This document shows, piece after piece, positions 6,212-64,000 of a stretch of 64,000 bases of DNA; the stretch's first letter is position 1; every line of letters begins with the position of its first letter. Both the position numbers and the translations under genes were made by a program. Source of the stretch: Gammaproteobacteria bacterium (GTDB lineage: Bacteria > Pseudomonadota > Gammaproteobacteria > JAJPIJ01); NCBI GenBank assembly GCA_021324815.1, contig JAJPIJ010000051.1, forward strand, positions 2,188 to 66,187. The letters run 5' to 3'. The notes beneath the pieces are model-generated. The model was not told the DNA's origin. It ran no database searches and worked only from the letters and a program-made list of their open reading frames with translations.

Positions 6212-6255
6212 GACGCCAAATCATCACCTTCAATCACGACAGCGAGGAGAAGCCC

Positions 6256-12228: not shown

Positions 12229-12348
12229 CTGCGGGTCATGGCCGTTCGATGGCGGGGCGGCGCCGTATCGGGCGGGGAATATGGCAAACTATTCTGCACC
12301 CCGATGCCCCCGCCGTGCCAGCGCGGAAACGCCAGGACTGGAGGATAT

Positions 12349-28653: not shown

Positions 28654-28662
28654 GGGGCGCGC

Positions 28663-44106: not shown

Positions 44107-44117
44107 GTCGGGTCTAA

Positions 44118-47100: not shown

Positions 47101-47320
47101 TGAGGCGGCGACACTCCGGCTGCGTCCGATTCTGATGGTCGGTCTGGCGGCGGTACTCGGCTTAACGCCCATGGCCATTTCTGGCGGTGCGAACATCCCA
47201 CTGGCCCGCGCTGTGGTCGGCGGCCTGCTGGCCGCAGTGGTGATGGTCTTGTTCGTTGTGCCGATTCTCTATCTGCTATTCAAAGGAGAGAGGCCAACTC
47301 AAACAGCATCGCAGATATGA
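44118..47320 (+). CDS. efflux RND permease (second pump; ECF-linked)
   Basis: 1067 aa. 12-TM/2-loop RND architecture, TM4 LLIDQSIVVIENTERH. Confidence 0.9.
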
Positions 47321-48483
47321 AAAAACACTTGCTACATCTTCTGATTGGCTGCGGCGGAATCCTCGCCGCCGTTTTGTTGACCGGCTGTGATCGTTCCGCG
47401 AAAGTATATGCCTCTTCGTCCGCGCCCATTCCGAACGTGCAAGTCGTTCACCTGAAATCAGGGGAGATCACCCGCCGCATCGCACTACCGGGCAATCTGC
47501 GCGCCTACCAGGAAGCGACGCTCTACGCGAAAGTGCCTGGTTATCTGAAATCCATTGCGGTAGACCGGGGCGACTGGGTCAAAGCGAATGATGTGCTCGC
47601 GGAACTCGAAGTCCCCGAGATGCTGGCCGACGTGGAGCGCTACCAGGCGGAATTAAGCCGCTCCGAGGCTGAGTCGGTGCGCGCCGAGGCGGAAGCACAA
47701 TTGGCGGAGATCGAACAAGAACGCGTCCGCAGAGCTCAAGAGAAGGCACCGGACTTGGTGATACCGCTGGCCGTTGACAAAGCCAGGGCCCAGTTTAAGG
47801 TAACCAAAGCCCAACAGGTTGTCGCCCGGTCGAATTACGAAGTCGGCCGTGCCAACTTGAAACGGCTCGAGACTCTTATCAGTTACTCAAAGATCATTGC
47901 TCCGTTCGACGGCGTCGTGGTCAGACGCTGGGTGGACATCGGAGCATTTATTCCAGCGGCCACTTCCAGCAGCGCCGCCCGCAGTGCCGCCGTGGTCACA
48001 GTGATGGACTTCAGCCGCGTTCGCATCGAAGTGGCTATCCCGGAACCGGAAGTGCCGCTGGTCAAGAAGAATTTGCCGGTCAAAGTCACGGTCGAGGAAC
48101 TGCCGGGCCGTGTATTCAATGGGAAAATATCGCGCTTCGCCTACGCGCTCGACGAATCCACCAAGACAATGATGACGGAAATCGAAATTCCGAATTCCGA
48201 CCACGCGCTGCGCCCCGGGATGTACGCAAGCTGTCAGATTACTTTGGAAAAGAAGACGGACGCTCAACTTCTGCCCGCCGAGGCGATCATCACGGAAAAG
48301 AACAAAAGTTTTGTTTTCGCCTACCGTGATGGGAAGGCCGCTCGTCTTCCGGTCAAGACCGGCTTCGATGATGGCATTGCCGTCGAAATCCTGGAGGGAT
48401 TGAAACCCAACGAAGCCGTGATTGTGGCCGGCAGGCAGGCCATCACGGACGGTCAAATCGTCAACGCCACGGAGGCCCAATGA
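47317..48483 (+). CDS. efflux RND periplasmic adaptor subunit
   Basis: Lipobox LLTGC, biotinyl-lipoyl/beta-barrel MFP pattern. ATGA overlap with the RND gene. Confidence 0.85.
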   Translation: MKKHLLHLLIGCGGILAAVLLTGCDRSAKVYASSSAPIPNVQVVHLKSGEITRRIALPGNLRAYQEATLYAKVPGYLKSIAVDRGDWVKANDVLAELEVPEMLADVERYQAELSRSEAESVRAEAEAQLAEIEQERVRRAQEKAPDLVIPLAVDKARAQFKVTKAQQVVARSNYEVGRANLKRLETLISYSKIIAPFDGVVVRRWVDIGAFIPAATSSSAARSAAVVTVMDFSRVRIEVAIPEPEVPLVKKNLPVKVTVEELPGRVFNGKISRFAYALDESTKTMMTEIEIPNSDHALRPGMYASCQITLEKKTDAQLLPAEAIITEKNKSFVFAYRDGKAARLPVKTGFDDGIAVEILEGLKPNEAVIVAGRQAITDGQIVNATEAQ

Positions 48484-49841
48484 GAGTCCGGGTTTGCATT
48501 CACTTGACGTTTTGCGCCGCTGCCTGGCTCTGCTTCGCGCCTGCATCCCTTGCGCAACCCGCCGATTCCGCAACGAGCGAAACCGGAGCGAATGTTTACT
48601 TGATTGACCTGCCCACCGCTTTGCGGCTGGCTGGGGCACGGAATCTTGACGTTCAACTCGCTCGCGAAAAACTGGCGGAAGCCAGGGCGCTTGACGAAAG
48701 CGCGATGCTCCGATTTTATCCGTGGGTGAACGTGGGGATTTCTTATAACCGGCATGACGGCCGGATCCAGTCGACCGAAGGGGACATCCTTACTGTGAGC
48801 AAGCAGGCTTATGCACCGGGCGTCGCGCTGGTCAGTGAGTTGGATCTGGGCGACGCCATCTACAAAAAGCTTGCAGCCAAGCAGAACGAAAACGCCGCGG
48901 ACTATGCGTTCGAGGCTCAACGCCAAGCCAGCATCGCGGCCGTAGCGCGAAACTATTTTGATCTGGCGCTCGGGCAGGCCACCGTGGGCGTGGCGCGGGA
49001 GTCGGTGCGAATTTCAACCGACTACGAGACACAAGTGCGCCACGCCGTGGAAGCCGGCATTGCTTTTAAGGGAGATGCGCTTCGCGTTTCAGTGCAGGCG
49101 GAACGTAACCGGCTTGTGTTGCGCCAAGCCATGGAAGAACAGCGAAAGGCCGCCGCCCGTCTGGCACAGTCACTTCACATGGACTCCTCGATCGAACTGG
49201 TGGCCCGCGACACTGACCTCACCCCGATTAGCCTTGTTGACACCCACACGACCATGGACTCGCTCGTACAGCAAGCGCTCTCCACGCGTCCGGAGTTAAA
49301 GCAGGGCAACGCCGAGGTGGAGGCTGCGCGCGAGGACGAAAATGGAACGGTTTATGGTCCGTTGATTCCGTCAATCAGAGGCCAAGTCGTCGGTGGGGGG
49401 CTGGGCGGGGGCCGGAACAGTGACACCGGCAATTTTGGTGATCAAGAGGACTACTTCATCGGAATTGGTTGGCGTATCGGACCGGGCGGCCTGTTTGACT
49501 TTGGCCGGCAACGAGCGGCGAATGCCCGCCTCAATTCGACCCGGCTGGGCGAGGAAAAACTTCATGATGAAGTCGTCCGCCAAGTCGTGGAAGCATTCAC
49601 CCGGCTGCAATCGCAATCCGAACAAATCAATATGGCGCGGCGCGCGTTGACCGCCGCCGAAGAGGGTCTTCACCTGGCCCAGCAGCGACAGGAGTTTGGT
49701 GTCGGAATCGTTTTGGAAAACATTCTCGCCGAGCAGGACTTGACCCGCGCTCGCATTGATTACCTCAAATCTGTCGCCGAGTTTAACAAGGCGCAATATG
49801 ATCTCTCCAAGGCAGTTGGCAGGTTGCCAGTGTCTGATTAG
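48480..49841 (+). CDS. TolC-family outer membrane efflux protein
   Basis: Signal peptide, two repeated OEP coiled-coil halves. ATGA overlap with the MFP gene. Confidence 0.8.
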   Translation: MRVRVCIHLTFCAAAWLCFAPASLAQPADSATSETGANVYLIDLPTALRLAGARNLDVQLAREKLAEARALDESAMLRFYPWVNVGISYNRHDGRIQSTEGDILTVSKQAYAPGVALVSELDLGDAIYKKLAAKQNENAADYAFEAQRQASIAAVARNYFDLALGQATVGVARESVRISTDYETQVRHAVEAGIAFKGDALRVSVQAERNRLVLRQAMEEQRKAAARLAQSLHMDSSIELVARDTDLTPISLVDTHTTMDSLVQQALSTRPELKQGNAEVEAAREDENGTVYGPLIPSIRGQVVGGGLGGGRNSDTGNFGDQEDYFIGIGWRIGPGGLFDFGRQRAANARLNSTRLGEEKLHDEVVRQVVEAFTRLQSQSEQINMARRALTAAEEGLHLAQQRQEFGVGIVLENILAEQDLTRARIDYLKSVAEFNKAQYDLSKAVGRLPVSD

Positions 49842-49987: not shown

Positions 49988-50563
49988 CTACTTTGGCGGC
50001 GACGATTTCGATGCTTGCGGCGCGACCATGCAAAACCCCTGGGGTTCGACCCCCAGAGCTGCATTGAACTTGCTTGACAGGTTCTGGAATGCAATTAACG
50101 CCGTCAGCTCGATGACGGCATCGTCATCGAAGAACTTGCGCAGGCGCGCGAGATGCCCAGCGGTTGAGGACCTGTCCGCACGGGTCATTGCCTCCGCGTA
50201 GGCCAGTGCCGCCTTCTCGCGTTCGCTGAAGTGCGAACTGGACTCGAAATCCGCCAGCGCCTGCAGCTTTTCCACATTGCCGCCACGCCTGAGTATCAGT
50301 GCGGAGTTGATGTCCACGCAGAATGAACACCAGTTGATTTGAGACACCCTCACCGCGATCAGTGAGCGGAGCAGCGGCTCAATGGGCGAGGAACGGCGGT
50401 CAAGGGCACCATATAAAAGCGCCAGGGCAACGAATACCTTCGGGCTCCGGCCCCACAACCGAGCGGACTCGAGCACCGTGCCATAGCGCCGTTTTTGATT
50501 CCAGAGAAATAGACGCACATACCATGGGAAGCGGTGCGTCGGCGGGGTCGGAATCATAGCCAT
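49988..50563 (-). CDS. carboxymuconolactone decarboxylase (AhpD-like) family protein
   Basis: 191 aa. CMD-family length and a WCSFC Cys pair. Confidence 0.6.
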   Translation of the reverse strand: MAMIPTPPTHRFPWYVRLFLWNQKRRYGTVLESARLWGRSPKVFVALALLYGALDRRSSPIEPLLRSLIAVRVSQINWCSFCVDINSALILRRGGNVEKLQALADFESSSHFSEREKAALAYAEAMTRADRSSTAGHLARLRKFFDDDAVIELTALIAFQNLSSKFNAALGVEPQGFCMVAPQASKSSPPK

Positions 50564-50760: not shown

Positions 50761-52938
50761 CTAAATCCACAAGCCGGCCGCCGCCGCGGGCGGGGAAGTC
50801 AGCCAGGTTCGCTCGAACTCTTCGCTCGTCACCGGTTTCCCGAAAAGATATCCCTGAGCCTCATTACATTTTCTGAGTCGAAGAAAAACGACTTGAGCCT
50901 CGGTCTCGACACCTTCGGCGATGACGCGCATGCCAAGCGCATGTCCTATCCGCAATATCGTGTCGCAGATTACCTCCGCGTTATGGTCGTGTCCAATACC
51001 GTCTACAAATGACTTGTCGATCTTGATCGCATCAACCATGAAACGTTGCAAGTAGTTCAGCGACGAATAGCCGGTGCCGAAATCATCTATGGACACATGC
51101 ACGCCGAGTTTGCGCAGTTCGGCAAGTACTTGCGTGGAATGTTCGACGTCACGCATTGTTGTCGTTTCGGTAATCTCCAATTCGAGTCGAACGGTCGGTA
51201 TGCCGGACTCACCCGCACCGCGGACGGTCGTTGTTTCGGTTACTTCCAATTCAAGTCGATCTGCCGGCATGGCAGAGCCATGCACGACCCGTTTGATCCG
51301 CCGTACCAGGTCTGGGTCGGAAAATTCCTGTCCCGATACGTTGATTGCGAGACGTGGCGACCAACCATAACGCGTGTGCCACCTTTGGATATGCTCACCG
51401 GCCGCCCGCAGGACGAAATCGCCAATCTGTCCCATCAATCCGGTGGATTCCGCAAGCGGAATGAATTCGGCTGGATTCACCAAACCCCGGGTCGGATGCT
51501 GCCAGCGTAGCAGGACTTCGGCGCCGGCCAGCACCGCCCCATCATGCGGCGGCAAGAGCTTGACCTTGGGCTGAAAGACCACGAAAAACTCGCGGCGCAA
51601 AATCGCCTGTTCAAGATCATGGGTCAACTGCTGGCGCGCGCGCATGGCCAATGCGAACTGTGGCGAATAGAACTGATATTTGCAGGTGGTTGCCTCGTAG
51701 GTCTGTACTAATGCCAGTTCCGCCTGCGACAGCAGATCCTCGCCCACAAATACGTTTCCATCCGATTGCGCGATGCCCACTCGCACGGGTAGTGACACCT
51801 CGACATCATCTGCCACTTTGATGGGATGAGAAACGGCATTCAGCAATTTCTCCGCGAGCGCCGCCGTGACATGCGGATCGCCCATTCCGCATCGAACTAT
51901 GACGAATCGATCGGCGCCGACATGCGCCAGAAAGTCGTCGGGGGATGCGGCATATTGCAGACATCGCGCGAGTTCGTGAAGCAAACGATCCGCCGCGGCA
52001 TGACCATAGGTCGCGTTCAGCGCGCGAAAGCGAAGCACGTTGAAAAGCAGCACGGTCACTCCATGCCCCATGCCGCATCTACGCTTCAGGAACTCCAGCA
52101 ACGCCGCCCGGTTCGGCAAACCGGTAATGAGGTCATGGTGCGTCAGGAAAAACGCCTGCTCCACCGCCATCTCTTTATCACGGCGCCTGCTGTCGGCCAC
52201 CCTGTTGAGCATGGTGTTGTGTGCGTGGATCAAGTCGCCCATCTCGTCGCCGCGCCTCATCGACAATGTGAACGATGCGGCATCGTCTGGTGTTGCCGCG
52301 GCCTTGAGTGCGCTTTCGCGCAGTCGCAGCAGCGGGCGCAGCAGCCATCGATCCAGCACCAGCATTGTCCCGACGGTCACCACCAGCACGATGATTGCGA
52401 TCAAACCGGCGATGCGCAATAAGTAGGCATGCAATCGCTGCGGCAGGTCGCCAACATCAACGCGGGCGGCCACAGTCACATCCGGAATCAGATCGCTGCG
52501 CCAGACCGCAGTCAGAGTTCGCCCCCCTGTCTCCGTAGAAACGAGTTGTCGCTTCAGTGTCGCGCCCGGCACCAGGTCGGTGGCAGGAACCTCGCCGGCG
52601 CTGGCCAGTACCGCGCCAGACGGGCCGCGGATCGCCACCCCGCGCAACCCCTCCTGACCGACGATTGCATCAAGATCCGGAAGGATCCTGCGTCTCCGAG
52701 CGTCGGCGAGCACAAATTCAACCAGGCTCTGGGTCCTCTCGGCCAGTCGCATCAGCTCCCCGCGCTCAAAATACCTGGCTGATGGCACTATAATGACACT
52801 TTCAACGCCAAGGATAAGTCCAAACACGGCAAGCGTGATCTTCCAGCAAAGGCGGCAACTCCATAGCGGGGAAAGTCCAGCCACCGCCGGGACCTTATGC
52901 TGGATGCTCTGCTGTTCCATTTTAAATGTGTCATCCAT
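50761..52938 (-). CDS. membrane sensor diguanylate cyclase/phosphodiesterase (TM-periplasmic-TM-HAMP-GGDEF-EAL)
   Basis: GGDEF region (LPNRAALLEF..., RCGMGD variant), EAL region (EVLLRWQHP, DDFGTGYSSLNYL). Two N-terminal TM helices. Confidence 0.85.
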   Translation of the reverse strand: MDDTFKMEQQSIQHKVPAVAGLSPLWSCRLCWKITLAVFGLILGVESVIIVPSARYFERGELMRLAERTQSLVEFVLADARRRRILPDLDAIVGQEGLRGVAIRGPSGAVLASAGEVPATDLVPGATLKRQLVSTETGGRTLTAVWRSDLIPDVTVAARVDVGDLPQRLHAYLLRIAGLIAIIVLVVTVGTMLVLDRWLLRPLLRLRESALKAAATPDDAASFTLSMRRGDEMGDLIHAHNTMLNRVADSRRRDKEMAVEQAFFLTHHDLITGLPNRAALLEFLKRRCGMGHGVTVLLFNVLRFRALNATYGHAAADRLLHELARCLQYAASPDDFLAHVGADRFVIVRCGMGDPHVTAALAEKLLNAVSHPIKVADDVEVSLPVRVGIAQSDGNVFVGEDLLSQAELALVQTYEATTCKYQFYSPQFALAMRARQQLTHDLEQAILRREFFVVFQPKVKLLPPHDGAVLAGAEVLLRWQHPTRGLVNPAEFIPLAESTGLMGQIGDFVLRAAGEHIQRWHTRYGWSPRLAINVSGQEFSDPDLVRRIKRVVHGSAMPADRLELEVTETTTVRGAGESGIPTVRLELEITETTTMRDVEHSTQVLAELRKLGVHVSIDDFGTGYSSLNYLQRFMVDAIKIDKSFVDGIGHDHNAEVICDTILRIGHALGMRVIAEGVETEAQVVFLRLRKCNEAQGYLFGKPVTSEEFERTWLTSPPAAAAGLWI
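51163..51258. repeat. in-frame 69-bp tandem duplication inside the EAL domain coding region
   Basis: Cores gtttcggtaatctccaattcgagtcga (51163-51189) and gtttcggttacttccaattcaagtcga (51232-51258). Encodes RLELEVTETTTVR / RLELEITETTTMR. Confidence 0.75.
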
Positions 52939-53037: not shown

Positions 53038-53619
53038 TCAGTCATCGTCGTGTCCCCGCCATGCGCGATCGGCAAACATTTCATCGACTGGGGTGTGAAA
53101 CAGGTGATTGGAATAGTTGCTGAGCGTCTTCACGGCAATGGCCAGGATGATGGCGAGGATCTGGTGTTCTGAATAGCCCGCCTTCAGAAAGGCCGCGACG
53201 TCTTCCTGGCGCGGCCGCCCCTGCGTCCATAACATAATCCGCGTGAAGTCAAAGAGTGCCGAAAGCCGCGGGTCACTAATTTCCTTGCCGTCGCGGATGG
53301 CATCGGTCACTGCCATCGGGACCTGCGAATGTTTGTCGGCAAGCGTGCTGTGCGCCGCCATGCAATAATGGCACCGATTATCGCGGCTAATCGTCAGAAA
53401 CACGACCTCCTGCTCGGCCGGCGTAAATCCGGACTCTGACCGAAATCTCGCATAGCCGAGCAGGTAGGTCTCCAACAGGCCCGGCAGGTTCACCATGCCG
53501 GCATACATGTTGGGGATGAAACCGACCTGGGCTTTCGCCCGGTCAAGGACCTCCCGGGCGCGCGGATCGGCCTGCGCAAGCGTGATCAGGGGAAGGGTGA
53601 GTTTGTACTCTGCGGTCAT
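53038..53619 (-). CDS. carboxymuconolactone decarboxylase / AhpD-like peroxidase-related protein
   Basis: CHYCMAAH (CxxC...H) motif typical of the AhpD core. About 193 aa. Confidence 0.7.
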   Translation of the reverse strand: MTAEYKLTLPLITLAQADPRAREVLDRAKAQVGFIPNMYAGMVNLPGLLETYLLGYARFRSESGFTPAEQEVVFLTISRDNRCHYCMAAHSTLADKHSQVPMAVTDAIRDGKEISDPRLSALFDFTRIMLWTQGRPRQEDVAAFLKAGYSEHQILAIILAIAVKTLSNYSNHLFHTPVDEMFADRAWRGHDDD

Positions 53620-53974: not shown

Positions 53975-56131
53975 TTACCCCCTTTGCCAGCGGTGCAGAT
54001 GTTCCAGCCAGCACAGCAGCCGCACCGGTGCGTGCTGGCGCTTCCACGTCCCGGCGGCGTACTTGTTGGCCTCTGCCAGGGTGGGATAGATGTGGATGGT
54101 TTTAAGGATCTTGTTGAGTCCGATGCCGTGGCGCATCGCCAGCACGTATTCGGCGATGAGATCACCGGCATGCTCGCCAACAATGGTGACGCCCAGGATT
54201 CGATCGGAGCCCGGCGCGGTCAGCACCTTGACATAGCCGCGGTCGCTGCCATCGGTGATGGCCCGATCGAGATCGTCCAATCCGTAGCGCGTCACCTCGA
54301 CTACCACGCCCTGCGCTTTCGCCTCCGCCTCGTTCAACCCCACCCGCGCGACTTCCGGATCGGTGAAGGTCGCCCAGGGAATCACGGAGTAATCAGCCTT
54401 GAAGCGCTTGTAGCGACCGAACAGGGCGTTGACCGCGGCATACCATGCTTGGTGCGCGGCGGTATGGGTAAACTGGTAGGGACCGGCGACGTCGCCGCAT
54501 GCAAGAATATTCGGATAGCGGGTTTGGAGATATTCATTGGTACGCACAGTACCGGTGGGAGTCGTCTCAATGTTGAGTTCTTCCAGACCCAGCCCTTCCG
54601 TATTGGCGCGACGCCCCACAGCGACCAGCACGTCATCGAAAACCACCCGCCGCATATCACCGAGGTGATCAAGATAGACGGCCTTCTCGCCATCCTCGAT
54701 AGCGAAGTGCATCGCCTTGTGCTCCAGAAGGACTTGCACGCCGTCGGCCTCCAAGCTTTGCTGAACCAGTTGCGAGGCCTCGTCGTCCTCCCGGATCAGC
54801 AAACGGGGCAGCATTTCGACCAAAGTGACGTTGCTGCCCAGCCGGGCGAAGGCCTGTGTCAGTTCGCAGCCGATGGGGCCGCCGCCCAGGACCACGAGGC
54901 GCGCCGGTCTGGTTTCAATCTCCCACAGGCTATCGGAGGTCAGGTAACCAACCTCGCGCAGCCCCGGTATGGACGGAACCAGCGGGCGGCTGCCGGTGGC
55001 GATCACGATGTTACACGCGGTCAGCCGCTGTGTATCGCTCCCGTGCCGGATTTCAACCTCCCAGGGCGAAACCAGCCGCGCCTCGCCCGCTCGGCAATCC
55101 ACGCCCAGTTCGGTGTAGCGCGCCACCGAATCGTGCGGCGCCACCTTTTCGATCACGCGGTGGACGCGTCGCATGACGCTGGCGAAATCAACCGGTGGAT
55201 CGATCCCGCCCAAACCATAGTGATCAGCGCATCTGGCCAGATGCAGGATGCGCGCGCTCTTGATCAAGGCCTTGGATGGCACACAACCCGTATTCAGACA
55301 GTCGCCGCCCATGCGATGTTTCTCCACAAGCGTAACACCGGCCCTGATTGCCGCGGCGATATACGCCGTTACCAGACCTGCGCTGCCGGCGCCGATCACG
55401 ATCAGATTGCGGTCGAAGCGCCGCGGTCGTCGCGATTCCCAAGGCCGGTACACGTGCCAGATCTGCGCGCGCGACGCCAGAACGCGCGCCAGCCAGGGGA
55501 AGCATGCCAACAACGCGAAAGCGCCCAAGAGCTGCGGTGATAACAGGTCGGCGACGCTTTCGATCCGCGCCAGCTGGGTGCCGGCATTCACGTAGACGAT
55601 TGTGCCGGCCAGCATCCCGACTTGGCTCACCCAGTAGAAGGTCCAGGCCGGCATGAGTGTCAGTCCCATCAACAGATTGACCAGGAAGAACGGGAACGCC
55701 GGCACCAACCGGAGGGTGAAAAGATATAAGGCGCCATCGCGTTCCAGACCGGCGTTGATATGGCGCAAGCTTGCGCCGAAGCGGCTTTGGACAATGTCGC
55801 GCAAGAGGAAGCGCGAGACAAGAAACGCCAGCGTCGCGCCCAGAGAGGACGCAAACGACACGATTACAGTGCCGGACAGCATACCGAACAGGGCACCCGC
55901 CATTATCGTCAGGAGAGTGGCGCCGGGTAACGATACGGCAGTCACTGCGACGTAGCACAGGAAGAAACCGACAACCATGGACAATGGATAGCGATGATAG
56001 AGCTGTACGAAATGTTGCTGGCGCGCCTTCAGATTGTCCAGGGTTAGGTAGGACTGCATATCGAAGACAAAAAATGCGGCAATCGCCGCTGCGACCACTG
56101 TAAACAGGATCAGCTTGTTGCGGCCGCGCAT
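53975..56131 (-). CDS. bifunctional DedA(TVP38/TMEM64)-family membrane domain / class I FAD-dependent pyridine nucleotide-disulfide oxidoreductase
   Basis: N-terminal polytopic DedA-like domain. C-terminal FAD motif GAGSAGL, redox-active GGDCLNTGCVPSK, NADH-binding and dimerisation regions. Confidence 0.75.
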   Translation of the reverse strand: MRGRNKLILFTVVAAAIAAFFVFDMQSYLTLDNLKARQQHFVQLYHRYPLSMVVGFFLCYVAVTAVSLPGATLLTIMAGALFGMLSGTVIVSFASSLGATLAFLVSRFLLRDIVQSRFGASLRHINAGLERDGALYLFTLRLVPAFPFFLVNLLMGLTLMPAWTFYWVSQVGMLAGTIVYVNAGTQLARIESVADLLSPQLLGAFALLACFPWLARVLASRAQIWHVYRPWESRRPRRFDRNLIVIGAGSAGLVTAYIAAAIRAGVTLVEKHRMGGDCLNTGCVPSKALIKSARILHLARCADHYGLGGIDPPVDFASVMRRVHRVIEKVAPHDSVARYTELGVDCRAGEARLVSPWEVEIRHGSDTQRLTACNIVIATGSRPLVPSIPGLREVGYLTSDSLWEIETRPARLVVLGGGPIGCELTQAFARLGSNVTLVEMLPRLLIREDDEASQLVQQSLEADGVQVLLEHKAMHFAIEDGEKAVYLDHLGDMRRVVFDDVLVAVGRRANTEGLGLEELNIETTPTGTVRTNEYLQTRYPNILACGDVAGPYQFTHTAAHQAWYAAVNALFGRYKRFKADYSVIPWATFTDPEVARVGLNEAEAKAQGVVVEVTRYGLDDLDRAITDGSDRGYVKVLTAPGSDRILGVTIVGEHAGDLIAEYVLAMRHGIGLNKILKTIHIYPTLAEANKYAAGTWKRQHAPVRLLCWLEHLHRWQRG

Positions 56132-57075
56132 GTCACTCTTTCCGCCGACCGATTTGCGATTGGTGCCAGTTCGCTGCAGGATGCATGGTGTTTGAAACAA
56201 CTGTAACATCGGTGATGGCGCAGCATGATGCGTTGTTTCAAACTTTCCCCCAGGCTCCCACCCAGGTCAAAAGCTGGATCATCGTCCACCAGCGTGCAGG
56301 CATACACCCGCATGCGACCACCGATCTTCACCACCATCCGGCTGGAGGCGCACATGAAGGCGGCGCGGCTTTCCGCGGTGTGATAGGTGGTCATGCAATG
56401 CTCGGTGATTTCTGGGTTTTCTACCCGGCTGCCGGGCGGATGAAAATCGGGGAACGACACCAGCCTCAGATCTTTCGGCAAACCGTTTCGCTGGAAAAGG
56501 TCTCGAAAACGGCTTTCGACGACGTCAGCGTCTTCATTGGCTGACTGCTGCCGGGCCACTGATACTTTGAAACCCATGGCATGCAACGCGCACAAGCTTT
56601 TCACCGCCAGATCAAAGGCGCCGAAACCCCGGCCACTGTCATGGCGGTTTGCATCGGGATAATCGAGGCTCACACGGAAACTTGTCGGATGGGGGCAATG
56701 CAACAATGGCCGCAACTCATCTAGACGACGCAGCAGCGGCAGCGTGCCATTGGTCAGCACCAGGCAGGGACGGTAGCGCGAGGCACATCTTAAGATTGCC
56801 GGGAAATCCCTCGCCAGAAACGGTTCACCGCCGGTGAATGAAAACTGTTCAACACCGAGTGCCACGGCTTCCACAATGAACGGTTCGACATCAATGAGTT
56901 TCACCAGCTCCAAGCGTCTGTCGCCGGGCTTCGAACCTTCCAGGCAGAAAGGACAAGCCAGGTTGCAAGCCGTGCCGATATGAAACCACAGTTCGCGTAA
57001 GCGGCTGGTATCGATATAGCCCCGCGGCTCACCGCTTCGCGTGAACAACCAGTCATCCCGCGCCATCCTGTTCAT
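56110..57075 (-). CDS. arsS: radical SAM / Cys-rich domain protein (TIGR04167-like; arsenosugar biosynthesis ArsS-like)
   Basis: CNLACPFC radical-SAM cluster motif, C-terminal Cys-rich CYSCFKHHASC. Immediately downstream of the ArsM-like gene. Confidence 0.6.
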   Translation of the reverse strand: MNRMARDDWLFTRSGEPRGYIDTSRLRELWFHIGTACNLACPFCLEGSKPGDRRLELVKLIDVEPFIVEAVALGVEQFSFTGGEPFLARDFPAILRCASRYRPCLVLTNGTLPLLRRLDELRPLLHCPHPTSFRVSLDYPDANRHDSGRGFGAFDLAVKSLCALHAMGFKVSVARQQSANEDADVVESRFRDLFQRNGLPKDLRLVSFPDFHPPGSRVENPEITEHCMTTYHTAESRAAFMCASSRMVVKIGGRMRVYACTLVDDDPAFDLGGSLGESLKQRIMLRHHRCYSCFKHHASCSELAPIANRSAERVTCAAATS

Positions 57076-57084
57076 GTCATTCTC

Positions 57085-58131
57085 CTAACAGCAGCCGTTG
57101 TTCGCGGATGCGCTGGTGGCCTCAGCAAACGGCAGTCCGCCACCACACCCAGCGAATAACCCGTAATGTGTGTCAAAGCTGCCGATGAACTCGAAATGGG
57201 GTGCAAAACGGGTCTCCTTCAACATCCGCCAGGTATTGCCGCACACGGGCAAGACACGCCCCTTTTCCATGACATGATGTTTGTCCAGCACGAAACGATC
57301 CGGGTGATATGGAATAGTGCCACGATAGATCACCGCCTGGCCGTAATCCTCGCAGGCCGGTTCCAAATCAGGCAATTTAAACAATCGGTAGGTTGCCGAG
57401 AAAAAGCGGATGTTACCGAGCCGCTTGGACAGTTGAGGGCTTTCCACCCGGATCGGCCGGCCGCCGACCTGGCGCGGGTCGGGGAAACCCTGGCGTACTG
57501 CCAGCGTTAAAAAGTCGTTCCAATAGAGCGCCCCGCTCAGGCATTCACCGTACAGCACCGGATCCTGTTTGAGCTGCGCCGGGACCCGCCGGTCCGCATA
57601 AATGTCCGCGAAGTAGATCTCACCGCCCGGCTTCAACACATGGTAAGCCTGACGCAGGACTGCGGCCTTGTCCGAGGCAAGATTGATCACGCAGTTGGAT
57701 ACAACGAGATCCACGCTGGCCGCGGGAATGGCTAGTCTGTCAAGGCGTTCGATATCGCCATGCAGAAACTGGACATTGCTCTTCTGATAACCAAAGGCCT
57801 TGCGATGAAACTCGGCGTGCCGGCGGGCAATGGCAAGCTGTTTTTCGGTCATGTCGACACCAATCACCGAACCTTGCGGTCCCACCAGTCGGGACAGGAG
57901 ATAAGCGTCACGACCGGTTCCACAGCCCAGATCCAGGATGGTCAGCCCTTCCAGATGTTCCGGCACAATCAGTCCGCAGCCATAATGCCGTTCGATGACC
58001 TCGGGATGGATCTGCGCCAGGATGGGTTTGACAAACTCCGGTGGCGACGCTTCGGTGCAGCATGCGTCAGTTTTCAGATCTTTCGTGCCCTGCAAGGTTT
58101 CGCCGTAATACTGCTTCACGATATCATTCAT
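57085..58131 (-). CDS. arsM: arsenite S-adenosylmethionine methyltransferase (ArsM/AS3MT-like)
   Basis: N-terminal DACC Cys pair, YGCGLIVPEHLEGLTILDLGCGTGRD SAM-binding motif with conserved Cys, further conserved Cys and C-terminal Cys-rich tail. Confidence 0.7.
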   Translation of the reverse strand: MNDIVKQYYGETLQGTKDLKTDACCTEASPPEFVKPILAQIHPEVIERHYGCGLIVPEHLEGLTILDLGCGTGRDAYLLSRLVGPQGSVIGVDMTEKQLAIARRHAEFHRKAFGYQKSNVQFLHGDIERLDRLAIPAASVDLVVSNCVINLASDKAAVLRQAYHVLKPGGEIYFADIYADRRVPAQLKQDPVLYGECLSGALYWNDFLTLAVRQGFPDPRQVGGRPIRVESPQLSKRLGNIRFFSATYRLFKLPDLEPACEDYGQAVIYRGTIPYHPDRFVLDKHHVMEKGRVLPVCGNTWRMLKETRFAPHFEFIGSFDTHYGLFAGCGGGLPFAEATSASANNGCC

Positions 58132-58150
58132 TAGTTTTCACTCCAGAATG

Positions 58151-58849
58151 TCATGTACCTGTTTCACCATTACCGTAACCGCGCGCCAGCACATTGGGAG
58201 AAAGGCCTGCCGCAAATGCCAGCGCCAGGATGCGGTTTCGAAAGGATCTCCGCCACCAACCATCGCGTTCCCAGCGACGCGGATCTACTCGCAGCCCGTC
58301 ATCGATCACAACGAACGGTCCTTGTTGACGCAGTTTCCTGACCAGTGCGACCTCTTCAAAAAGCGGTGACACAGAATGCCCACCCGCCATTACATAAGCC
58401 GCCACGGTCATAAACAAACCTTGATCACCATACGGTATGCCAATCCGGCAACGTAAATTGATCAACCTCTCCAGAACCCTTGCCTGCCAGCGGCAAGCCC
58501 CCGCAAAGCGAAAACGAAAGTATCCCCCTGCGGCGCCGCGGCCCATGGCTTGTGTGATCGAACCAAGTGGATCGCCCTGAAGAGTTGCGTCGGCGTGCAG
58601 GAACCAGATGACATCACCAGTCGCTGCGAATGCGCCCTGACGTAGCTGCGCGCCGCGGCAGGGCCGCGACGGCAACCGCCGTGCCCCCCAGCGCTGACAC
58701 AGCGAATGCGTAGCGGCGCCGTCTTCGGCGTCGACGACGACGATTTCGTGCGGTTGCGAAGCCCCGGCACGCAGTTGCGACAATAACCGCCCCAGCGCGG
58801 CATCGTCGCGAAAGCACGGAATCACTACACTGATATCCACGTTACACAT
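58151..58849 (-). CDS. family 2 glycosyltransferase (TIGR04283-like, rSAM-associated)
   Basis: DISVVIPCFRD GT2 N-terminal motif. Confidence 0.6.
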   Translation of the reverse strand: MCNVDISVVIPCFRDDAALGRLLSQLRAGASQPHEIVVVDAEDGAATHSLCQRWGARRLPSRPCRGAQLRQGAFAATGDVIWFLHADATLQGDPLGSITQAMGRGAAGGYFRFRFAGACRWQARVLERLINLRCRIGIPYGDQGLFMTVAAYVMAGGHSVSPLFEEVALVRKLRQQGPFVVIDDGLRVDPRRWERDGWWRRSFRNRILALAFAAGLSPNVLARGYGNGETGT

Positions 58850-58854
58850 GCCCA

Positions 58855-59550
58855 TCACATTGAGGATTGCAACCACCGGTAAAGCTTCTGGCGGGCCGGT
58901 CGCCGATCCCCGGCCAGGGTGTTGGCAAGGCGTTGCAGGTCATCGACCTCGTCGATGTCAAATCCGCCGCCAGGCAAAACTACGAGACTCCCGCAGCGGT
59001 TGCAGGCCTGCGCCAGGGTCTGGCCCAGTTGCCCGGTGCTCCACGGCAAACCGCCGAGATCAGGCCAAGGGCGCCGGGACGCCATGAGGACGACACCGCC
59101 ATCCCTCGCCGGGATCAGCACGGTATCGTAGCTCATCAGGCAGCGACGAACGTCCTCATAATCGGTGCTCGACAGTGACGGCGCATCGCTGCCGATGAAC
59201 ACCAGCGACTGATGGCCACGCGCGCGCAGTTCGCCATCCAGACGATTGAGACGTTGGCCCAGATTGCCGCGCCCCTGAGCATGGACCCGCACACCTGGAA
59301 GTAACGTCGTTGCCCAAGACACATCTCGCCGCCTCGCAGGCGCCACGACGATGGGGCCAGGCCAGGCGGCCAGATCCTCCGTGGCACAGGCAAGCAGTTG
59401 TGTTGCGATTTCGTAGGTGATATTGATGCCCAGTGTTTTCGCCAGACGCTGCTTGCCGACACCGGGCGCCGGACGTTTGCATACCAAAACCAATGTGGGC
59501 AGGCGCGGATCTCCGGCGGACGCGCTGTCTGTGAGGATGGTCGGGGCCAT
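58855..59550 (-). CDS. DUF2064 (TIGR04282-like, rSAM-associated transferase 1) protein
   Basis: LVLVCKRPAPGVGKQRLAKTLG motif. Start at MAPTIL with GGAGG SD. The long Arg-rich N-terminal extension in the ORF track is discounted. Confidence 0.6.
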   Translation of the reverse strand: MAPTILTDSASAGDPRLPTLVLVCKRPAPGVGKQRLAKTLGINITYEIATQLLACATEDLAAWPGPIVVAPARRRDVSWATTLLPGVRVHAQGRGNLGQRLNRLDGELRARGHQSLVFIGSDAPSLSSTDYEDVRRCLMSYDTVLIPARDGGVVLMASRRPWPDLGGLPWSTGQLGQTLAQACNRCGSLVVLPGGGFDIDEVDDLQRLANTLAGDRRPARQKLYRWLQSSM

Positions 59551-59570
59551 CTGGCTGGCTGCCTCCGACC

Positions 59571-60704
59571 TCATGGCATGAGAAAGTGCATGGCTCGGTA
59601 AGCTGCGATCCCGAGCAGCGCCGCCACCGGCAGGGTTACCACCCAGGCCAGCAGGATGTCCCGCAACACACGACGATTGATCCGACGACGTCGGAGCCCG
59701 GCGCCGACAATACCGCCTGAAGACACATGCGTCGTGGACACCGGCAAACCATAGAGCGCCGCCGACGTTACCAGCACGGCCGTGACGAGATTGGCGGCGA
59801 ATCCCTCGCGGTGGTCCATGCGGGTGACCTTTTCCGCCAGCACATGCGTGACACGACGACCGCCGACGACACTGCCCACCAACATGCCCAGGGCAACAAG
59901 TGCGAACAGCGCCGGCATCGGCAGCGCGGTCGGACCGGCCAGCACTGCCGCGGCGGCGATCAGGGCCACCATTTTGGGCGCGTCGTTCATGCCACGAGCG
60001 AGACTGGTGGCGCCGCTGGTCAGCCAGTGCAGATGGTCGAACGTCAGACGCACCGCCTGTGGTCTTTCCCGGGCGCACTGCTCCCGGTCACCCGTCACAA
60101 TCGACAGGGTCGTCGGCACGAAGGTACCGGCGGCGGCCAGGGTGCCGATACGATCCACGTTTATCTCAACAGGCTGCGCCTCCAGGCACAGGCAATCCCC
60201 CACCGGCACGCGCTCCTCTTGCTCCTGAAAGGATCCGAGCAACAACACAGTCAATCCGAAAGAGACGGCCGGACTCACCAGCAGCGGGAGAAAAACCTTC
60301 ATGCCCAATGAACTCCATTGGATGGAGGCGGGACCATAAACGAGATAGCCAACGCCGACGACAGCACCGACCAGGGCATGGGTGGTGGAGACCGGCAGCC
60401 CGGTACGGGAGGCCAGGAAAACCCATCCTGCCGCCCCAATCAGCATGGCCAGCACCGCGGCGAGAGTGGGTGTAATGACAGGATCCAGCAACCCCTTGCC
60501 GAAGGTCGTGAGCATGGCACTGCCCCACAGCCCACCCAGCAAGGCGCCTAGACCAGTCCACAGAGTGCCCCAAATGATGGCCCGCCGATAGGTGGTCACA
60601 CCGCTGCCGACCAGCGTGGCAATCCCCTTCGACACGTCGTTGGAGCCATTGGCATAGGCCAGTGCCAAACCGGCCGTGACGGCAAACAGAATCTCCACAG
60701 TCAC
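59571..60704 (-). CDS. PiT-family inorganic phosphate (arsenate-permeable) transporter
   Basis: Duplicated PiT signature (YANGSNDVSKGIATLVGSG; ARGMNDAPK). 377 aa. Confidence 0.85.
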   Translation of the reverse strand: MTVEILFAVTAGLALAYANGSNDVSKGIATLVGSGVTTYRRAIIWGTLWTGLGALLGGLWGSAMLTTFGKGLLDPVITPTLAAVLAMLIGAAGWVFLASRTGLPVSTTHALVGAVVGVGYLVYGPASIQWSSLGMKVFLPLLVSPAVSFGLTVLLLGSFQEQEERVPVGDCLCLEAQPVEINVDRIGTLAAAGTFVPTTLSIVTGDREQCARERPQAVRLTFDHLHWLTSGATSLARGMNDAPKMVALIAAAAVLAGPTALPMPALFALVALGMLVGSVVGGRRVTHVLAEKVTRMDHREGFAANLVTAVLVTSAALYGLPVSTTHVSSGGIVGAGLRRRRINRRVLRDILLAWVVTLPVAALLGIAAYRAMHFLMP

Positions 60705-61073
60705 GGCGTATCCTCAATCTTACTGTTGCCTATCGGTTGAGGTGAAGAGAAAAATTTGTGGAAGCGCCTTCCACCGGGCATGGTAAGCGCGGAACGCAAG
60801 GCGCACAAAGCGGGTTCAGGATTGAACTGATTGTGAGGTCTCATGGTGCTGGGTCCATACGAAGGTGATCCATAGCATAAGACGGCTTTGCCCGGCATAT
60901 TCTTACATCGATGTCATGATAAAACGGCTCGACGAGGTTGATACCAACCCGTTCTTTGGACTGATGCGATGGTGTCAGCTACCATAAGGACCCGAATACA
61001 ACCCGTCTCGGTTTCGGCCACGGCCCCGGGCAAGCACTCCAAATATTAGAGACACATTCGTGCGAGCCCTGGG

Positions 61074-61703
61074 ATGCCAAGGACACTTCTACAAAAGGCA
61101 GCACATATGAATGGACCTGTGGTCGTCAGCCCTGACGCGATTGCCAGAGAACAAAAATACCTTTATCGATACGCCATCACGCGCTTGCGTGACCCTGATC
61201 TTGCGCAGGACGTCGTGCAGGACACCATCCTCGCCGCGATGGAGGCGGCAGAGCGCTTCCAGGGAAAGGCGTCTCTGCGGACCTGGCTCATCGCCATTCT
61301 GCGGAACAAGATCCTCGATGCCATGAAGGCGCATGCTCGATTGGTGTCTCTGGAGTCGGATCCCTCCACAGAGGATGCGCTTGATCACGATGTCGACAAG
61401 CAATTCAACCTGGACGGTCGCTGGTCGACCACCTATCGACCAACATCCTGGGCGAATCCGGAGGCTGCCTTTGAGAATACGCAGTTTTGGACGGTCTTCG
61501 AACGCTGTCTTGAGCATGTGCCGCCTCGGATTGCCGAGGTGTTCGTTCTACGAGAGGTGTTGGGTGAGACCATCGCCGACATCTGTAAGATTCTCGATCT
61601 TTCCGCGTCCAATTGTTCAGTCATGTTATTCCGCGCCCGCATGCGCCTGAAGGATTGTCTGGACGTGAACTGGTTTCGCGGGGAGACACGCAAGGATGCT
61701 TGA
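61074..61703 (+). CDS. ECF sigma factor (RpoE/ChrR-partner type)
   Basis: Region 2 DLAQDVVQDTILAAME, region 4 LPPRIAEVFVLREVLGETIADICKILDLSASNCSVMLFRAR. Confidence 0.8.
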   Translation: MPRTLLQKAAHMNGPVVVSPDAIAREQKYLYRYAITRLRDPDLAQDVVQDTILAAMEAAERFQGKASLRTWLIAILRNKILDAMKAHARLVSLESDPSTEDALDHDVDKQFNLDGRWSTTYRPTSWANPEAAFENTQFWTVFERCLEHVPPRIAEVFVLREVLGETIADICKILDLSASNCSVMLFRARMRLKDCLDVNWFRGETRKDA

Positions 61704-61752: not shown

Positions 61753-61947
61753 GTGGTCAGCTGGATGGATAACTGCAAAAAGATCAGCAGAATGATGTCT
61801 GATGCCATGGATCGCGATCTGACCCCCTGGGAGCGCCTGCGGATCCGAGTGCACCTCCTGATGTGTACAGGCTGCGCCCAATTTGCGCGCCAGCTCCAGA
61901 TACTCCGGGCGGTCTCACGCGCTTTCGTTGATCACACATTCTCGTAA
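61753..61947 (+). CDS. minimal ZAS-type anti-sigma factor (64 aa)
   Basis: HLLMCTGC = HxxxCxxC zinc-anti-sigma motif. Directly downstream of the ECF sigma gene. Lacks a C-terminal sensor domain. Confidence 0.5.
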   Translation: MVSWMDNCKKISRMMSDAMDRDLTPWERLRIRVHLLMCTGCAQFARQLQILRAVSRAFVDHTFS

Positions 61948-62016: not shown

Positions 62017-62589
62017 TTACCGATACAGATAGCTCACAATGGCGTCGATCTCTGCAGGGCTGAGATGGAAATTGGGCATGAACGTTTGGGGTTTGAGCTT
62101 TGCCGGGTCCGCCAGCCAGCTTTTCTCCCAATCGGGATCGCGTCGCTGTTTGACGGTGGTGAGATCAGGGTAAAGCGCGCGCCCGGCTTCGCCGGCAATG
62201 GCATGACAAGCGAAGCACTGGTACGCCTTGACTAGTTTCTCGCCGATCTCTGCTTGCGAGCCACCGCCTTTCAGCAGGTTGTCCTTGTCCACCGGCTTGG
62301 CGAGTTGGTGAAGAAAAGCTATGAGGGCTTCCCGATCGCCTTCCGTCCAGGCGAACTTCGGCATGAGCGTCCCCGGTTTGACCGCACTTGGATCCTCCAG
62401 CCAGTTCATCAGCCAATCGTCGGTTCTTCGTATGGTGACTTGGTTCAGGTTGGGACCAACCATGCCCCCCTCCTCCGATCCAATCACATGACAAGAACGA
62501 CAATTATGCTGGGCGATGAGTCGTTGCGCCCTGCCGATGTCAGCGCCGGCAACTGTAGACGGCAATGCCAGTAGTAGGATGCACGACAT
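62017..62589 (-). CDS. dihaem c-type cytochrome
   Basis: Two CxxCH motifs (CRSCH, CFACH). Signal peptide from MSCILLLALPS. Confidence 0.7.
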   Translation of the reverse strand: MSCILLLALPSTVAGADIGRAQRLIAQHNCRSCHVIGSEEGGMVGPNLNQVTIRRTDDWLMNWLEDPSAVKPGTLMPKFAWTEGDREALIAFLHQLAKPVDKDNLLKGGGSQAEIGEKLVKAYQCFACHAIAGEAGRALYPDLTTVKQRRDPDWEKSWLADPAKLKPQTFMPNFHLSPAEIDAIVSYLYR

Positions 62590-62691
62590 TACTGTCGCTC
62601 GTTTAGATCGCGGACGACAAGCAGGGCGCGCCGCAAGCCGGGCGGCCCGCAGATTGAGATCAATCATGGCGTTTCGATTGGCGCCGTGGGG

Positions 62692-63273
62692 CTACATCGA
62701 CTGTTTGCCGGGGGTGTACGCCTTCCCCTGACTGAGATACGACACGTAAGCCGCCAGGTCCCTTGAGTCCTTGCTTCCGAGCGGCAGCGGCTGGCCCTTC
62801 AGGAACATCACTACACAGTTATTGTTCATTTCGGGCAGCGTGATCACGGCATCGTTCGGGACTTTGTATTTGGGGAACGTCAGTGCTGCGCCTTTCAACG
62901 TTGGAATGAGCATCTGCATGTCCCCCATCGGCACTTTACCGCCGGTGGTGTCTCCGCCCGGATGACAGGTTGCGCAGGTAAATCCATTGGTGCCGAGACG
63001 GCTGCTCCCGAACAACTGTTCGCCGTGCTTGAGCGCGGTCTGCTGCTCGGTCATGACGTATTGCGCCCGGTCCTTGTCGGGCATCATCATGACCTTTTTC
63101 ATGTTTTGCATGGACATGGCTATCATCTGGTCAATGGACGGCATGGCACCGGCGGACGCCGATTCGGACTTCATATTCAGCGCGTCGCAGGCCGCCAGTG
63201 TGAGCCCCACAGCGACTATCCCCATCGTGACATTGAACGGAACGCGCAGGTGACGACTGATGTTGGTGATCAT
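62692..63273 (-). CDS. monohaem c-type cytochrome, probable lipoprotein
   Basis: CATCH haem-binding motif, lipobox LTLAAC. Confidence 0.65.
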   Translation of the reverse strand: MITNISRHLRVPFNVTMGIVAVGLTLAACDALNMKSESASAGAMPSIDQMIAMSMQNMKKVMMMPDKDRAQYVMTEQQTALKHGEQLFGSSRLGTNGFTCATCHPGGDTTGGKVPMGDMQMLIPTLKGAALTFPKYKVPNDAVITLPEMNNNCVVMFLKGQPLPLGSKDSRDLAAYVSYLSQGKAYTPGKQSM

Positions 63274-64000
63274 GGCAGCCTCCTCAAGTTTGTTGATGAC
63301 CTTAGTAGTCGTCCCTCGCGCGCTGTTATCGTGGCAGGGACGCTTCCGTAGCATTAGACGTTGCTGATAGACAATCCTTACAATTGACTTGCCGGCGCCA
63401 CGACTTCACCCAGGTCGCGCCGGAGCCATGCCCGATATATGTGTCAGACAGGTTTTAGACTGACTCCATCTTCACAAGGAAATATTCGAGATATTTCCGG
63501 GACACCACACTAGAGCTTATCGTTTCAATGCTGCCGCTCGCAGCAAGCGCCATTCTCTGCGACATCTCCGTGGCGCTTGTCGCCCGGAACCGGGCCGCGT
63601 GTCCCTCTCGTGTACAACAAATTACTCAACCAGCCATCAAGCGAGAGGCGGCCGGGGATCTGCAAGGAATACAAATCTCCTTTAAACCTTCTGACATCCA
63701 TTTGGTAATTCAATCGGCGCTATTTCTGGTTTTTAGCCGCTTCGCAAATTTCAGCCGCGTTTCGACATGCGCCTTTTCTTCCGGGAGCAAGCCAAGAAAT
63801 TCCGTCGTGCTGCCGAGTTCCAGCCTCTGGCTTCAATCTGTTTCCGCTTACTTTTCCGCATAGTGATATTCCGTGTTGCCGTGCGTACATTTGGGGATAA
63901 GCACTACGCCGCGCGAGGTCGAATTTCGCGATTCAGCCTGGCGCCCAATCTCGCCTTGCGCTCTCCATGTCGTAAGAAGACTGCATGTTCAGCCAGAAAC

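Follow-up and report, generated by a model that had tools for sequence, protein, structure and literature searches.

What forms the arsenic-carbon bond in an operon that carries the partner genes of arsenosugar biosynthesis and no canonical ArsS? The question is raised by a 64,000-nucleotide stretch of gammaproteobacterial DNA, referred to below as the window (assembly GCA_021324815.1, contig JAJPIJ010000051.1, positions 2,188 to 66,187 of the forward strand; coordinates given here count from the first nucleotide of the window). Its minus strand holds a packed six-gene operon (53975-60704) in which the gene for an ArsM-type As(III) S-adenosylmethionine (SAM) methyltransferase adjoins that for a radical-SAM enzyme (rSAM) of an unnamed family. 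The operon appears to be a variant of an annotated, barely characterized arsenosugar system, its distinguishing part being this unannotated rSAM family, which apparently substitutes for ArsS. With modest confidence, we take the cluster to work as an ArsS-type arsenosugar pathway with the rSAM in the ArsS slot.

In marine food webs, organic arsenic occurs mainly as arsenosugars and arsenolipids. To our knowledge, only arsM and arsS have experimental support in arsenosugar biosynthesis. ArsS adds a 5'-deoxyadenosyl radical to dimethylarsenite, DMAs(III), yielding 5'-deoxy-5'-dimethylarsinoyl-adenosine (DDMAA) (PMC13598754). In Synechocystis, arsS and arsM are neighbors that share a transcript (bioRxiv 10.1101/2022.09.23.509062). 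The families TIGR04282 and TIGR04283 are named "arsenosugar biosynthesis glycosyltransferases" in NCBIfam, having earlier been called "rSAM/selenodomain-associated."

Layout of the operon

Read along the minus strand, the operon begins with a PiT/PHO4-family anion transporter of 377 amino acids (aa) (59571-60704; PF01384), followed by a DUF2064 protein (58855-59574; 239 aa; PF09837), a family-2 glycosyltransferase (GT2; 58151-58855; 234 aa; PF00535), the ArsM-type methyltransferase (57085-58131; 348 aa), the rSAM (56110-57075; 321 aa; PF04055, with a CxxxCxxC motif), and a fusion of a DedA (VTT) domain to an FAD-dependent disulfide reductase (53975-56131; 718 aa; PF09335, PF07992, PF00070, and PF02852). 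An AhpD/CMD-like CxxC protein (53038-53619, minus strand; 193 aa; PF02627) comes next. The first-pass annotation had placed all seven genes within 53975-60704 and described them as tightly spaced or overlapping. All seven open reading frames (ORFs) do exist on the minus strand in that order, and identical genes were called on another contig from a metagenome-assembled genome (MAG), GCA_037025245.1 JBAIHU010000186.1. The span holds only six of them, however; the AhpD-like gene lies outside it, 355 nucleotides (nt) beyond the DedA::FAD-reductase gene, and the tight packing holds from PiT to DedA::FAD-reductase. At the first junction, the PiT stop and the DUF2064 start overlap by 4 nt; the remaining junctions are a 1-nt overlap, gaps of 19 and 9 nt, and a 22-nt overlap. 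Since the six genes are separated by only -4, -1, +19, +9, and -22 nt, a single transcript is likely, judging from the spacing.

Two versions of one system

The proteins of the window were mapped onto 80 fetched GTDB loci that encode the rSAM family, and a gene was counted as a partner when it lay within 5 kb of the rSAM gene. Of the 80 loci, 68 had one or more of these partner genes, nearly always on the same strand. Because so many homologous loci keep a partner nearby, the cluster is not a chance grouping, and its co-conservation, which the first-pass annotation had left to be checked, was confirmed. DedA was present in 43 loci, the FAD-reductase in 40, DUF2064 in 39, GT2 in 38, and ArsM in 24; a methylthioadenosine (MTA) phosphorylase (MTAP) was present in 10 and a sigma factor of the extracytoplasmic function (ECF) type in 9. 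The AhpD-like gene was found in two loci and PiT in none, so these two are peripheral, not conserved parts of the system, and the linkage of PiT is specific to this organism.

Several gene orders recur. ArsM-rSAM-DedA::reductase was found in Isoalcanivorax and Litorivivens, and DUF2064-rSAM-MTAP-GT2 in Motiliproteus and Neptuniibacter; the MTAP that lies between the rSAM and GT2 genes passes the TIGR01694 cutoff (283.5 versus 274.85 bits). The order DUF2064-DedA-reductase-GT2-rSAM is recurrent as well, with DedA and reductase as separate genes in locus L055, and locus L011 has ArsM-rSAM-DedA::reductase-GT2-DUF2064.

Through the GT2 of L011, we found three canonical ArsS loci, in Thauera phenylacetica (L089), Vibrio aerogenes (L090), and a Rhodoferax MAG (L091). 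In each, an ArsS with PF04055 and PF12345 lies beside a VTT::Pyr_redox fusion, a GT2, and a DUF2064 protein; variably, the three loci also hold an ArsM-like methyltransferase, a purine nucleoside phosphorylase (PNP) or MTAP, a Phn-type (phosphonate) ATP-binding cassette (ABC) transporter, and a pair of ECF sigma factor and zf-HC2 protein. The DedA::FAD-reductase of the window is 57 to 64% identical to its canonical-cluster counterparts and the ArsM 59 to 61%, as opposed to just 31 to 35% for GT2 and DUF2064. Conversely, a canonical ArsS was present in none of the 80 loci with the new rSAM. Since the partner set is common to both and 80 of 80 new-rSAM loci lack a canonical ArsS, this is one system in two versions that differ in their rSAM.

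The window resembles the canonical ArsM-ArsS arrangement (Synechocystis arsM-arsS; TIGR04167 with TIGR04282/TIGR04283) in that ArsM adjoins the gene of an rSAM with a CxxxCxxC motif; in the window, the two genes are on the same strand, 9 nt apart. The likeness extends to VTT::Pyr_redox, GT2, DUF2064, an occasional MTAP/PNP, a transporter of phosphate or phosphonate type, and the ECF/zf-HC2 pair. The window differs in that its rSAM lies outside TIGR04167 and lacks PF12345, and in that its PiT gene is translationally coupled to the operon; PiT occupies the transporter slot that in some canonical ArsS clusters is taken by the Phn-type ABC transporter.

Gene fusions of the rSAM

Further links between the rSAM and its partners come from gene fusions. 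The rSAM is joined to ArsM in both orders: ArsM::rSAM in P0362 and in P0377 (a Deltaproteobacteria MAG), and rSAM::ArsM in the P0363 cluster, which includes Deferribacter thermophilus WP_423302845.1 (P0511), and in P0479 and its relatives (Planctomycetota/Brocadiales). A TIGR04282 domain that scores 163.6 bits, above the cutoff of 134, precedes the rSAM in P0400. Other fusions are metallophosphoesterase::rSAM (P0401 and P0407), Pyr_redox::rSAM (P0415 and P0489), and an rSAM followed by an HD/YfbR-like 5'-deoxynucleotidase domain (P0394).

Locus L092 (JGI metagenome 3300005882; positions 2980-9194) consists of an operon DUF547 - rSAM::ArsM - VTT - Pyr_redox - DUF2064::GT2 with a CbiMQO-type transporter upstream, and its fusion protein P0363 shares a 90%-identity cluster with the D. 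thermophilus protein. Every function of the window operon except PiT is here condensed into five genes. The best case for placing the rSAM and ArsM in a single pathway is made by these fusions, L092 included.

The rSAM lies outside the ArsS family

The first-pass annotation had called the rSAM ArsS-like, and at the level of family membership this was refuted. The ArsS model TIGR04167 scored 35.5 bits against a cutoff of 300, aligned over profile positions 3-150 of 303 only, and ranked ninth among the NCBIfam matches. The sole Pfam domain was PF04055, without PF12345 (DUF3641), which was carried by 120 of 120 canonical ArsS matches versus 0 of 120 matches of the new family. The best NCBIfam match, the Rv1681 family, reached 97 of the 380 bits required. 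Membership in any curated family was rejected, as the best 25 of 34 NCBIfam matches all fell far below their cutoffs; no ArsL-named family was among these 25.

In a full-length hhalign comparison, the new rSAM aligned with the ArsS profile over 261 columns (probability, 97%; E = 7e-11). This similarity stems from the common rSAM core (E = 1e-11); with the C-terminal halves alone, the values were E = 0.029 and a probability of 1.7%, and homology of the rSAM to ArsS in this region was not demonstrable. The cysteine motifs of the two C termini are nevertheless collinear (MC..Y.C..C..C..G.SC, with G-A-S-C300 in the rSAM versus G-S-S-C in ArsS). A GxxU selenocysteine motif is listed for TIGR04167 (PMC13188914), and the last collinear cysteine, C300 of the rSAM, would correspond to its selenocysteine position. 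Among 16 aligned members of the new family, the CxxxCxxC cysteines (C37, C41, and C44, in CNLACPFC) are invariant, as are seven more: C104, C227, C242, C260, C290, C293, and C300, the last three of which sit in HHRCxSCFxxGxSCSE.

Structure comparison gave no functional lead, with only generic neighbors of the twitch/SPASM type. An AlphaFold2 (AF2) model (pLDDT, 80.5) had as its Foldseek neighbors BlsE, SkfB, SuiB, MoaA, and viperin, with TM scores of about 0.5, and a sequence search of solved structures returned generic rSAM matches only (AbmM 8wm2, SkfB, and BlsE). Our literature search found nothing on this rSAM family. Judged by sequence, the rSAM is best described as a very distant homolog or an analog of ArsS that stands outside the ArsS family. 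What survives of the ArsS-like call is the functional idea, by way of gene context and domain fusions.

Relatives of the rSAM were present in at least 576 GTDB species, with one genome per species scanned. When 1.84 billion representatives clustered at 50% identity were searched with a profile, 121 matched at E ≤ 1e-30, and the protein database holds more than 120 clusters at 62 to 81% identity, named just "radical SAM protein" or, generically, MoaA/AslB. Most carriers are marine Gammaproteobacteria (Alcanivorax, Marinobacter, Motiliproteus, Litorivivens, Halioglobus, Kistimonas/Endozoicomonadaceae, and Lentisalinibacter); others belong to the Kiritimatiellae, Rhodospirillaceae, Gemmatimonadota, and Calditrichaceae. 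Among the carriers that can be cultured are Isoalcanivorax indicus, Motiliproteus coralliicola, Marinobacter salinexigens, and Kistimonas scapharcae.

In a plasmid collection, only two copies were found. One, on plasmid pHP-187 of Marinobacter adhaerens HP15 (L087; NC_017507.1, 90097-90988), aligns in two pieces, has no annotated coding sequence, and is probably a frameshifted pseudogene; it adjoins a sodium:solute symporter gene, which also follows the rSAM gene in other Marinobacter loci. The other, on plasmid p546-1 of Roseomonas haemaphysalidis (L088; NZ_CP061178.1, 52211-71170), encodes a 36%-identical rSAM in the order TIGR04282 - DUF547 - second rSAM (about 460 aa) - rSAM - PhnD/E/C-type ABC transporter - metallophosphoesterase. 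Divergent genes there encode a chalcone-isomerase-family protein, MauE/DoxX, DUF547, an FAD-oxidoreductase, VTT, another FAD-oxidoreductase, and a GT2. This locus is a further variant of the arsenosugar-type system.

The methyltransferase is an ArsM homolog

The assignment of the methyltransferase to ArsM, made earlier from its motifs, was upheld: those motifs are all present, and residues 4-343 matched the Chlamydomonas ArsM structure (PDB 5evj) at E = 3.9e-108. Other solved ArsM enzymes followed, namely, CmArsM of Cyanidioschyzon (4fr0/4kw7; E = 7e-90) and 8xt7 (E = 1e-79). The four catalytic cysteines of CmArsM, C44, C72, C174, and C224 (chains 4kw7/4fr0), are all matched, in register, by C24, C52, C147, and C197. 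The protein scored below the curated NCBIfam cutoffs (165.1 versus 263 bits for NF008823, 148.9 versus 500 for NF040538, and 107.1 versus 400 for NF038099, the arsenosugar ArsM family); these low scores reflect narrowly trained ArsM models. On its alignments, then, the protein is a genuine ArsM homolog with a predicted arsenic-methylating activity.

All 32 cluster-linked ArsM homologs keep the four-cysteine motifs and end in -CC. The terminal pair (57085-57090 in the window; L004 through L090) is usually part of G-C-C and occurs both in new-rSAM clusters and in canonical ArsS clusters. By analogy with the C-terminal pair of MerA, it may be a metalloid hand-off arm.

Glycosyltransferase, DUF2064, and redox partners

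The GT2 and DUF2064 proteins had been read as rSAM-associated transferases, and their best matches are indeed TIGR04283 and TIGR04282, respectively; both fall below the cutoff. GT2 scored 177.7 against 182 bits with full-length coverage (1-221), and DUF2064 scored 106.6 against 134 bits, also with full-length coverage (PF09837, 63 versus 25.8). Going by these profile scores, the two are close sisters of the named families rather than members. GT2 partners of the same rSAM family pass TIGR04283 in L011 (276.8 bits) and L048 (196.7 bits), and the DUF2064 partner in L011 passes TIGR04282 at 210.2 bits. DUF2064 has a CofC/MobA-like nucleotidyl-transferase fold (a weak TIGR03552 match) and is fused to GT2 in L092.

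In the DedA::FAD-reductase, all four Pfam domains scored above their cutoffs, and a redox-active CLNTGC motif lies at aa 278-283 (C278-C283). An identity as mercuric reductase MerA was rejected: the score was 385.6 versus 454 bits, and the protein ends in HIYPTLAE without a C-terminal cysteine pair. In L055 and L092, the two halves are encoded by two genes side by side. The same architecture, DedA (COG0398) joined to a pyridine-nucleotide-disulfide oxidoreductase, is the commonest DedA domain fusion and of unknown function, and COG0398 DedA proteins resemble scramblases (PMC10127716). The fusions in the window and in the ArsS clusters have a defined set of genomic partners, which places them in a candidate pathway context that the cited work does not take up.

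PiT matched PF01384 over positions 1-350 of 350 (251 bits; E = 2e-74), with weak matches to a CysP-type sulfate permease and to PitA. The AhpD-like protein has a marginal PF02627 match (24.2 versus 23 bits), a TIGR01926 score of 67 versus 81.8, and a CHYC motif at aa 83-86. NCBIfam holds an ArsM::AhpD fusion family, NF041537, which makes a thiol-redox link between the AhpD-like protein and ArsM plausible. A second CMD/AhpD-like CxxC protein is encoded at 49988-50563 (minus strand); its best NCBIfam match is NF053654, a YciW-related (seleno)protein family, at 133.8 bits versus a cutoff of 310.

A predicted pathway

The product of the pathway that we favor would be an organoarsenical built on a 5-deoxy-5-arsinoyl-ribose unit. 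Because Pit transporters are promiscuous for inorganic phosphate and arsenate, PiT would import arsenate or another phosphate-like oxyanion. ArsM, to judge from its homology, would convert As(III) to dimethylarsenite. The rSAM would fill the ArsS slot, as context and fusions suggest rather than family membership; its most likely chemistry would be the addition of a SAM-derived 5'-deoxyadenosyl radical to DMAs(III), giving DDMAA. An MTA-phosphorylase-type enzyme could then remove adenine to leave a ribose-1-phosphate derivative. Such a gene is in the cluster of 10 of the 80 relatives and in that of Vibrio aerogenes; in the organism of the window, it would be encoded elsewhere. The nucleotidyl-transferase-like DUF2064 protein would activate the arsenoribose-1-phosphate, and GT2 would move the arsenoribose onto an acceptor, for example, glycerol, a glycerophospho-group, or a lipid. 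More speculatively, the FAD-disulfide-reductase half of the fusion may supply thiol reducing power that keeps arsenicals trivalent or re-reduces the disulfide cascade of ArsM, and the DedA half may handle a membrane or lipid(-linked) step.

The removal of adenine has a precedent in hopanoid side chain synthesis, where the rSAM HpnH adds a 5'-deoxyadenosyl group and HpnG, of the PNP family, then removes adenine, leaving a ribosyl unit. The gene order rSAM-MTAP-GT2 in 10 loci suggests the same logic. The substrate and the families are other ones, with no sequence relation beyond the rSAM core (HpnH is a weak match, at 30.6 bits). A second comparison is the ArsL-ArsM pathway to arsinothricin (arsQML), in which an rSAM and ArsM together build an organoarsenical through radical As-C bond formation. 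ArsL, however, transfers a 3-amino-3-carboxypropyl group, and arsQML includes a permease, ArsQ, but lacks GT2, DUF2064, DedA, and MTAP.

Locus L094 (ENA ERZ1756068; positions 1-13547) carries a DUF2064::rSAM fusion together with VTT::Pyr_redox, two DUF547 genes, and YdjM/DUF3047. Its further neighbors are a TonB-dependent receptor, a CNT nucleoside transporter, and a CDP-alcohol phosphatidyltransferase, along with a GT2, a GT87-like protein, and a fatty-acid hydroxylase. This content hints at a lipid-linked product, i.e., arsenosugar phospholipids, which are one candidate product of the rSAM route.

Weighing the alternatives

Several results weigh against an ArsS-type pathway. Since the rSAM fails the ArsS tests (the low and partial TIGR04167 score and the missing PF12345) and its C terminus shows no significant similarity to that of ArsS, the ArsS reaction cannot be transferred to it by homology. 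ArsM is absent within 5 kb in 56 of the 80 loci, and 19 of the 80 are DUF2064-DedA-FAD-reductase-GT2-rSAM units without ArsM. An MTAP beside the rSAM could merely salvage the by-product 5'-deoxyadenosine. Neither an arsenate reductase nor an MTAP was seen in the window, and its source organism is an uncultured MAG. In the literature that we searched, no experiment assigns a role in arsenosugar synthesis to TIGR04282, TIGR04283, or the DedA::reductase. Some of these results would fit an organoarsenical that is made with ArsM but by an rSAM reaction other than that of ArsS, which uses another SAM-derived group or acts on a later intermediate and leads to a different compound class. We regard this as unlikely, though worth serious consideration: the rSAM is a separate family with Rv1681 as its best match and TIGR04167 only in ninth place, its C-terminal homology to ArsS could not be demonstrated, the 31 to 35% identity of GT2 and DUF2064 to their canonical counterparts fits a changed substrate, and ArsL, with its 3-amino-3-carboxypropyl transfer, illustrates the diversity of rSAM chemistry on arsenic. 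It is opposed by the mutual exclusion of the rSAM and ArsS within an otherwise orthologous gene set and by L011, which pairs the new rSAM with canonical TIGR04283 and TIGR04282 proteins. An MTA phosphorylase within the cluster also fits an adenosylated intermediate, and the best 25 of the 34 NCBIfam matches include no family named for ArsL.

The scarcity of ArsM, missing within 5 kb in those 56 loci, might instead mean that the rSAM-DUF2064-GT2-DedA-FAD-reductase module is not primarily concerned with arsenic and serves selenium, tellurium, antimony, sulfur, a membrane lipid, or redox chemistry, with ArsM as an occasional add-on. The label under which the system was originally described, "rSAM/selenodomain-associated," remains in use at JGI; selenite resistance has been connected with a DedA protein (Ledgham 2005, as cited in PMC10127716); and the regulator is an ECF sigma factor with a zinc-binding anti-sigma (ZAS) partner, not ArsR. 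We nonetheless consider this improbable, given the covalent fusion of ArsM to the rSAM in several phyla and in both orders, the retention of all four As(III)-binding cysteines by the linked methyltransferases, and the experimental standing of the canonical counterpart ArsS as an arsenic enzyme (PMC13598754). Farthest from the evidence is an ordinary detoxification arsM that has unrelated genes as chance neighbors and shares no pathway with them. ArsM alone does give arsenite tolerance in many organisms (bioRxiv 10.1101/2022.09.23.509062), but reading frames that overlap or nearly abut, a co-location that recurs in dozens of genera and several phyla, fusions of the rSAM with its partners, and the lack of arsR, arsC, and acr3 nearby make this reading very improbable; the data on conservation and fusions already contradict it. 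The window shares with the classic ars detoxification operon (arsR, arsB/acr3, arsC, and arsH) an arsenic-handling enzyme, ArsM, and differs in lacking those other genes, in having the ECF/ZAS pair as regulator, and in its biosynthetic gene content. In agreement with the first-pass annotation, no arsR, arsB, acr3, or arsC, and also no arsH, was seen within about 10 kb of the cluster or in any of the larger window ORFs; a search of the window genes for canonical ArsS, MTAP, DUF547, and DUF3047 was likewise negative. That annotation's central proposal, organoarsenical (arsenosugar-type) biosynthesis rather than detoxification, is supported by the same partners in canonical ArsS clusters and by the 57 to 64% identity of the DedA::FAD-reductase and ArsM to their counterparts there.

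Regulation and genomic surroundings

Divergent from the operon lies an ECF sigma factor gene (61107-61703, plus strand; 198 aa), whose product scores 214 bits with TIGR02943, above the cutoff of 162. It is followed by a small zf-HC2 (ZAS-type) anti-sigma factor gene (61753-61947, plus strand; 64 aa), whose product has the HxxxCxxC motif HLLMCTGC; PF13490 was found on the identical gene in L002. Nine of the 80 related loci have an ECF sigma gene within 5 kb of the rSAM gene, and the canonical ArsS cluster of Rhodoferax (L091) has one nearby. Speculatively, the divergent pair might sense thiol-reactive arsenite.

A candidate ECF-type promoter, TGAAC-N17-CGTT, precedes the PiT start by about 90 nt (60793-60818, minus strand) and is the sole match in the 402-bp intergenic region upstream of PiT. 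It is not conserved upstream of related clusters; having dropped it as a conserved regulatory signal, we retain it as a weak candidate. A scan for sigma-70 promoters and terminators gave no more matches than were found in shuffled sequence, and an Rfam scan of 48-64 kb gave none.

Beyond the sigma/anti-sigma pair are two c-type cytochrome genes (62017-62667 and 62692-63354, both on the minus strand); one product has a SoxA/TsdA-type domain, and the other is a diheme cbb3/FixO-like protein. Just downstream of the cluster, a HAMP-GGDEF-EAL protein is encoded (50761-52938, minus strand). The window has two efflux systems of the resistance-nodulation-division (RND) type (25459-29880, minus strand, and 43973-49841, plus strand); the second comprises ACR_tran, membrane-fusion protein, and OEP genes, with about 150 nt between its end and the second CMD gene. 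Apart from these two pumps, the remaining large ORFs are housekeeping genes (dnaK, dnaJ, hrcA, and serA). The G+C content falls from 0.64-0.70 at 8-42 kb to 0.56-0.62 at 42-64 kb, where the cluster lies; this drop could mark a horizontally acquired segment or an assembly join in the MAG.

Implications

A broader proposal is that the unnamed rSAM was recruited independently as a second enzyme for forming As-C bonds and, with its partners, constitutes a complete route that leads from arsenite or methylarsenicals to glycosylated or lipid-linked arsenosugars in heterotrophic marine bacteria. We put this forward tentatively and think it rather doubtful in its full extent. If it holds, radical As-C bond formation would have a second known enzyme scaffold, and the steps after DDMAA would have candidate genes (MTAP, DUF2064, GT2, and phosphoesterase). 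A role would also be suggested for the widespread DedA::disulfide-reductase, the commonest DedA fusion. Gene surveys based on TIGR04167 would then undercount arsenosugar producers, and estimates of arsenosugar potential from ocean surveys would have to be revised.

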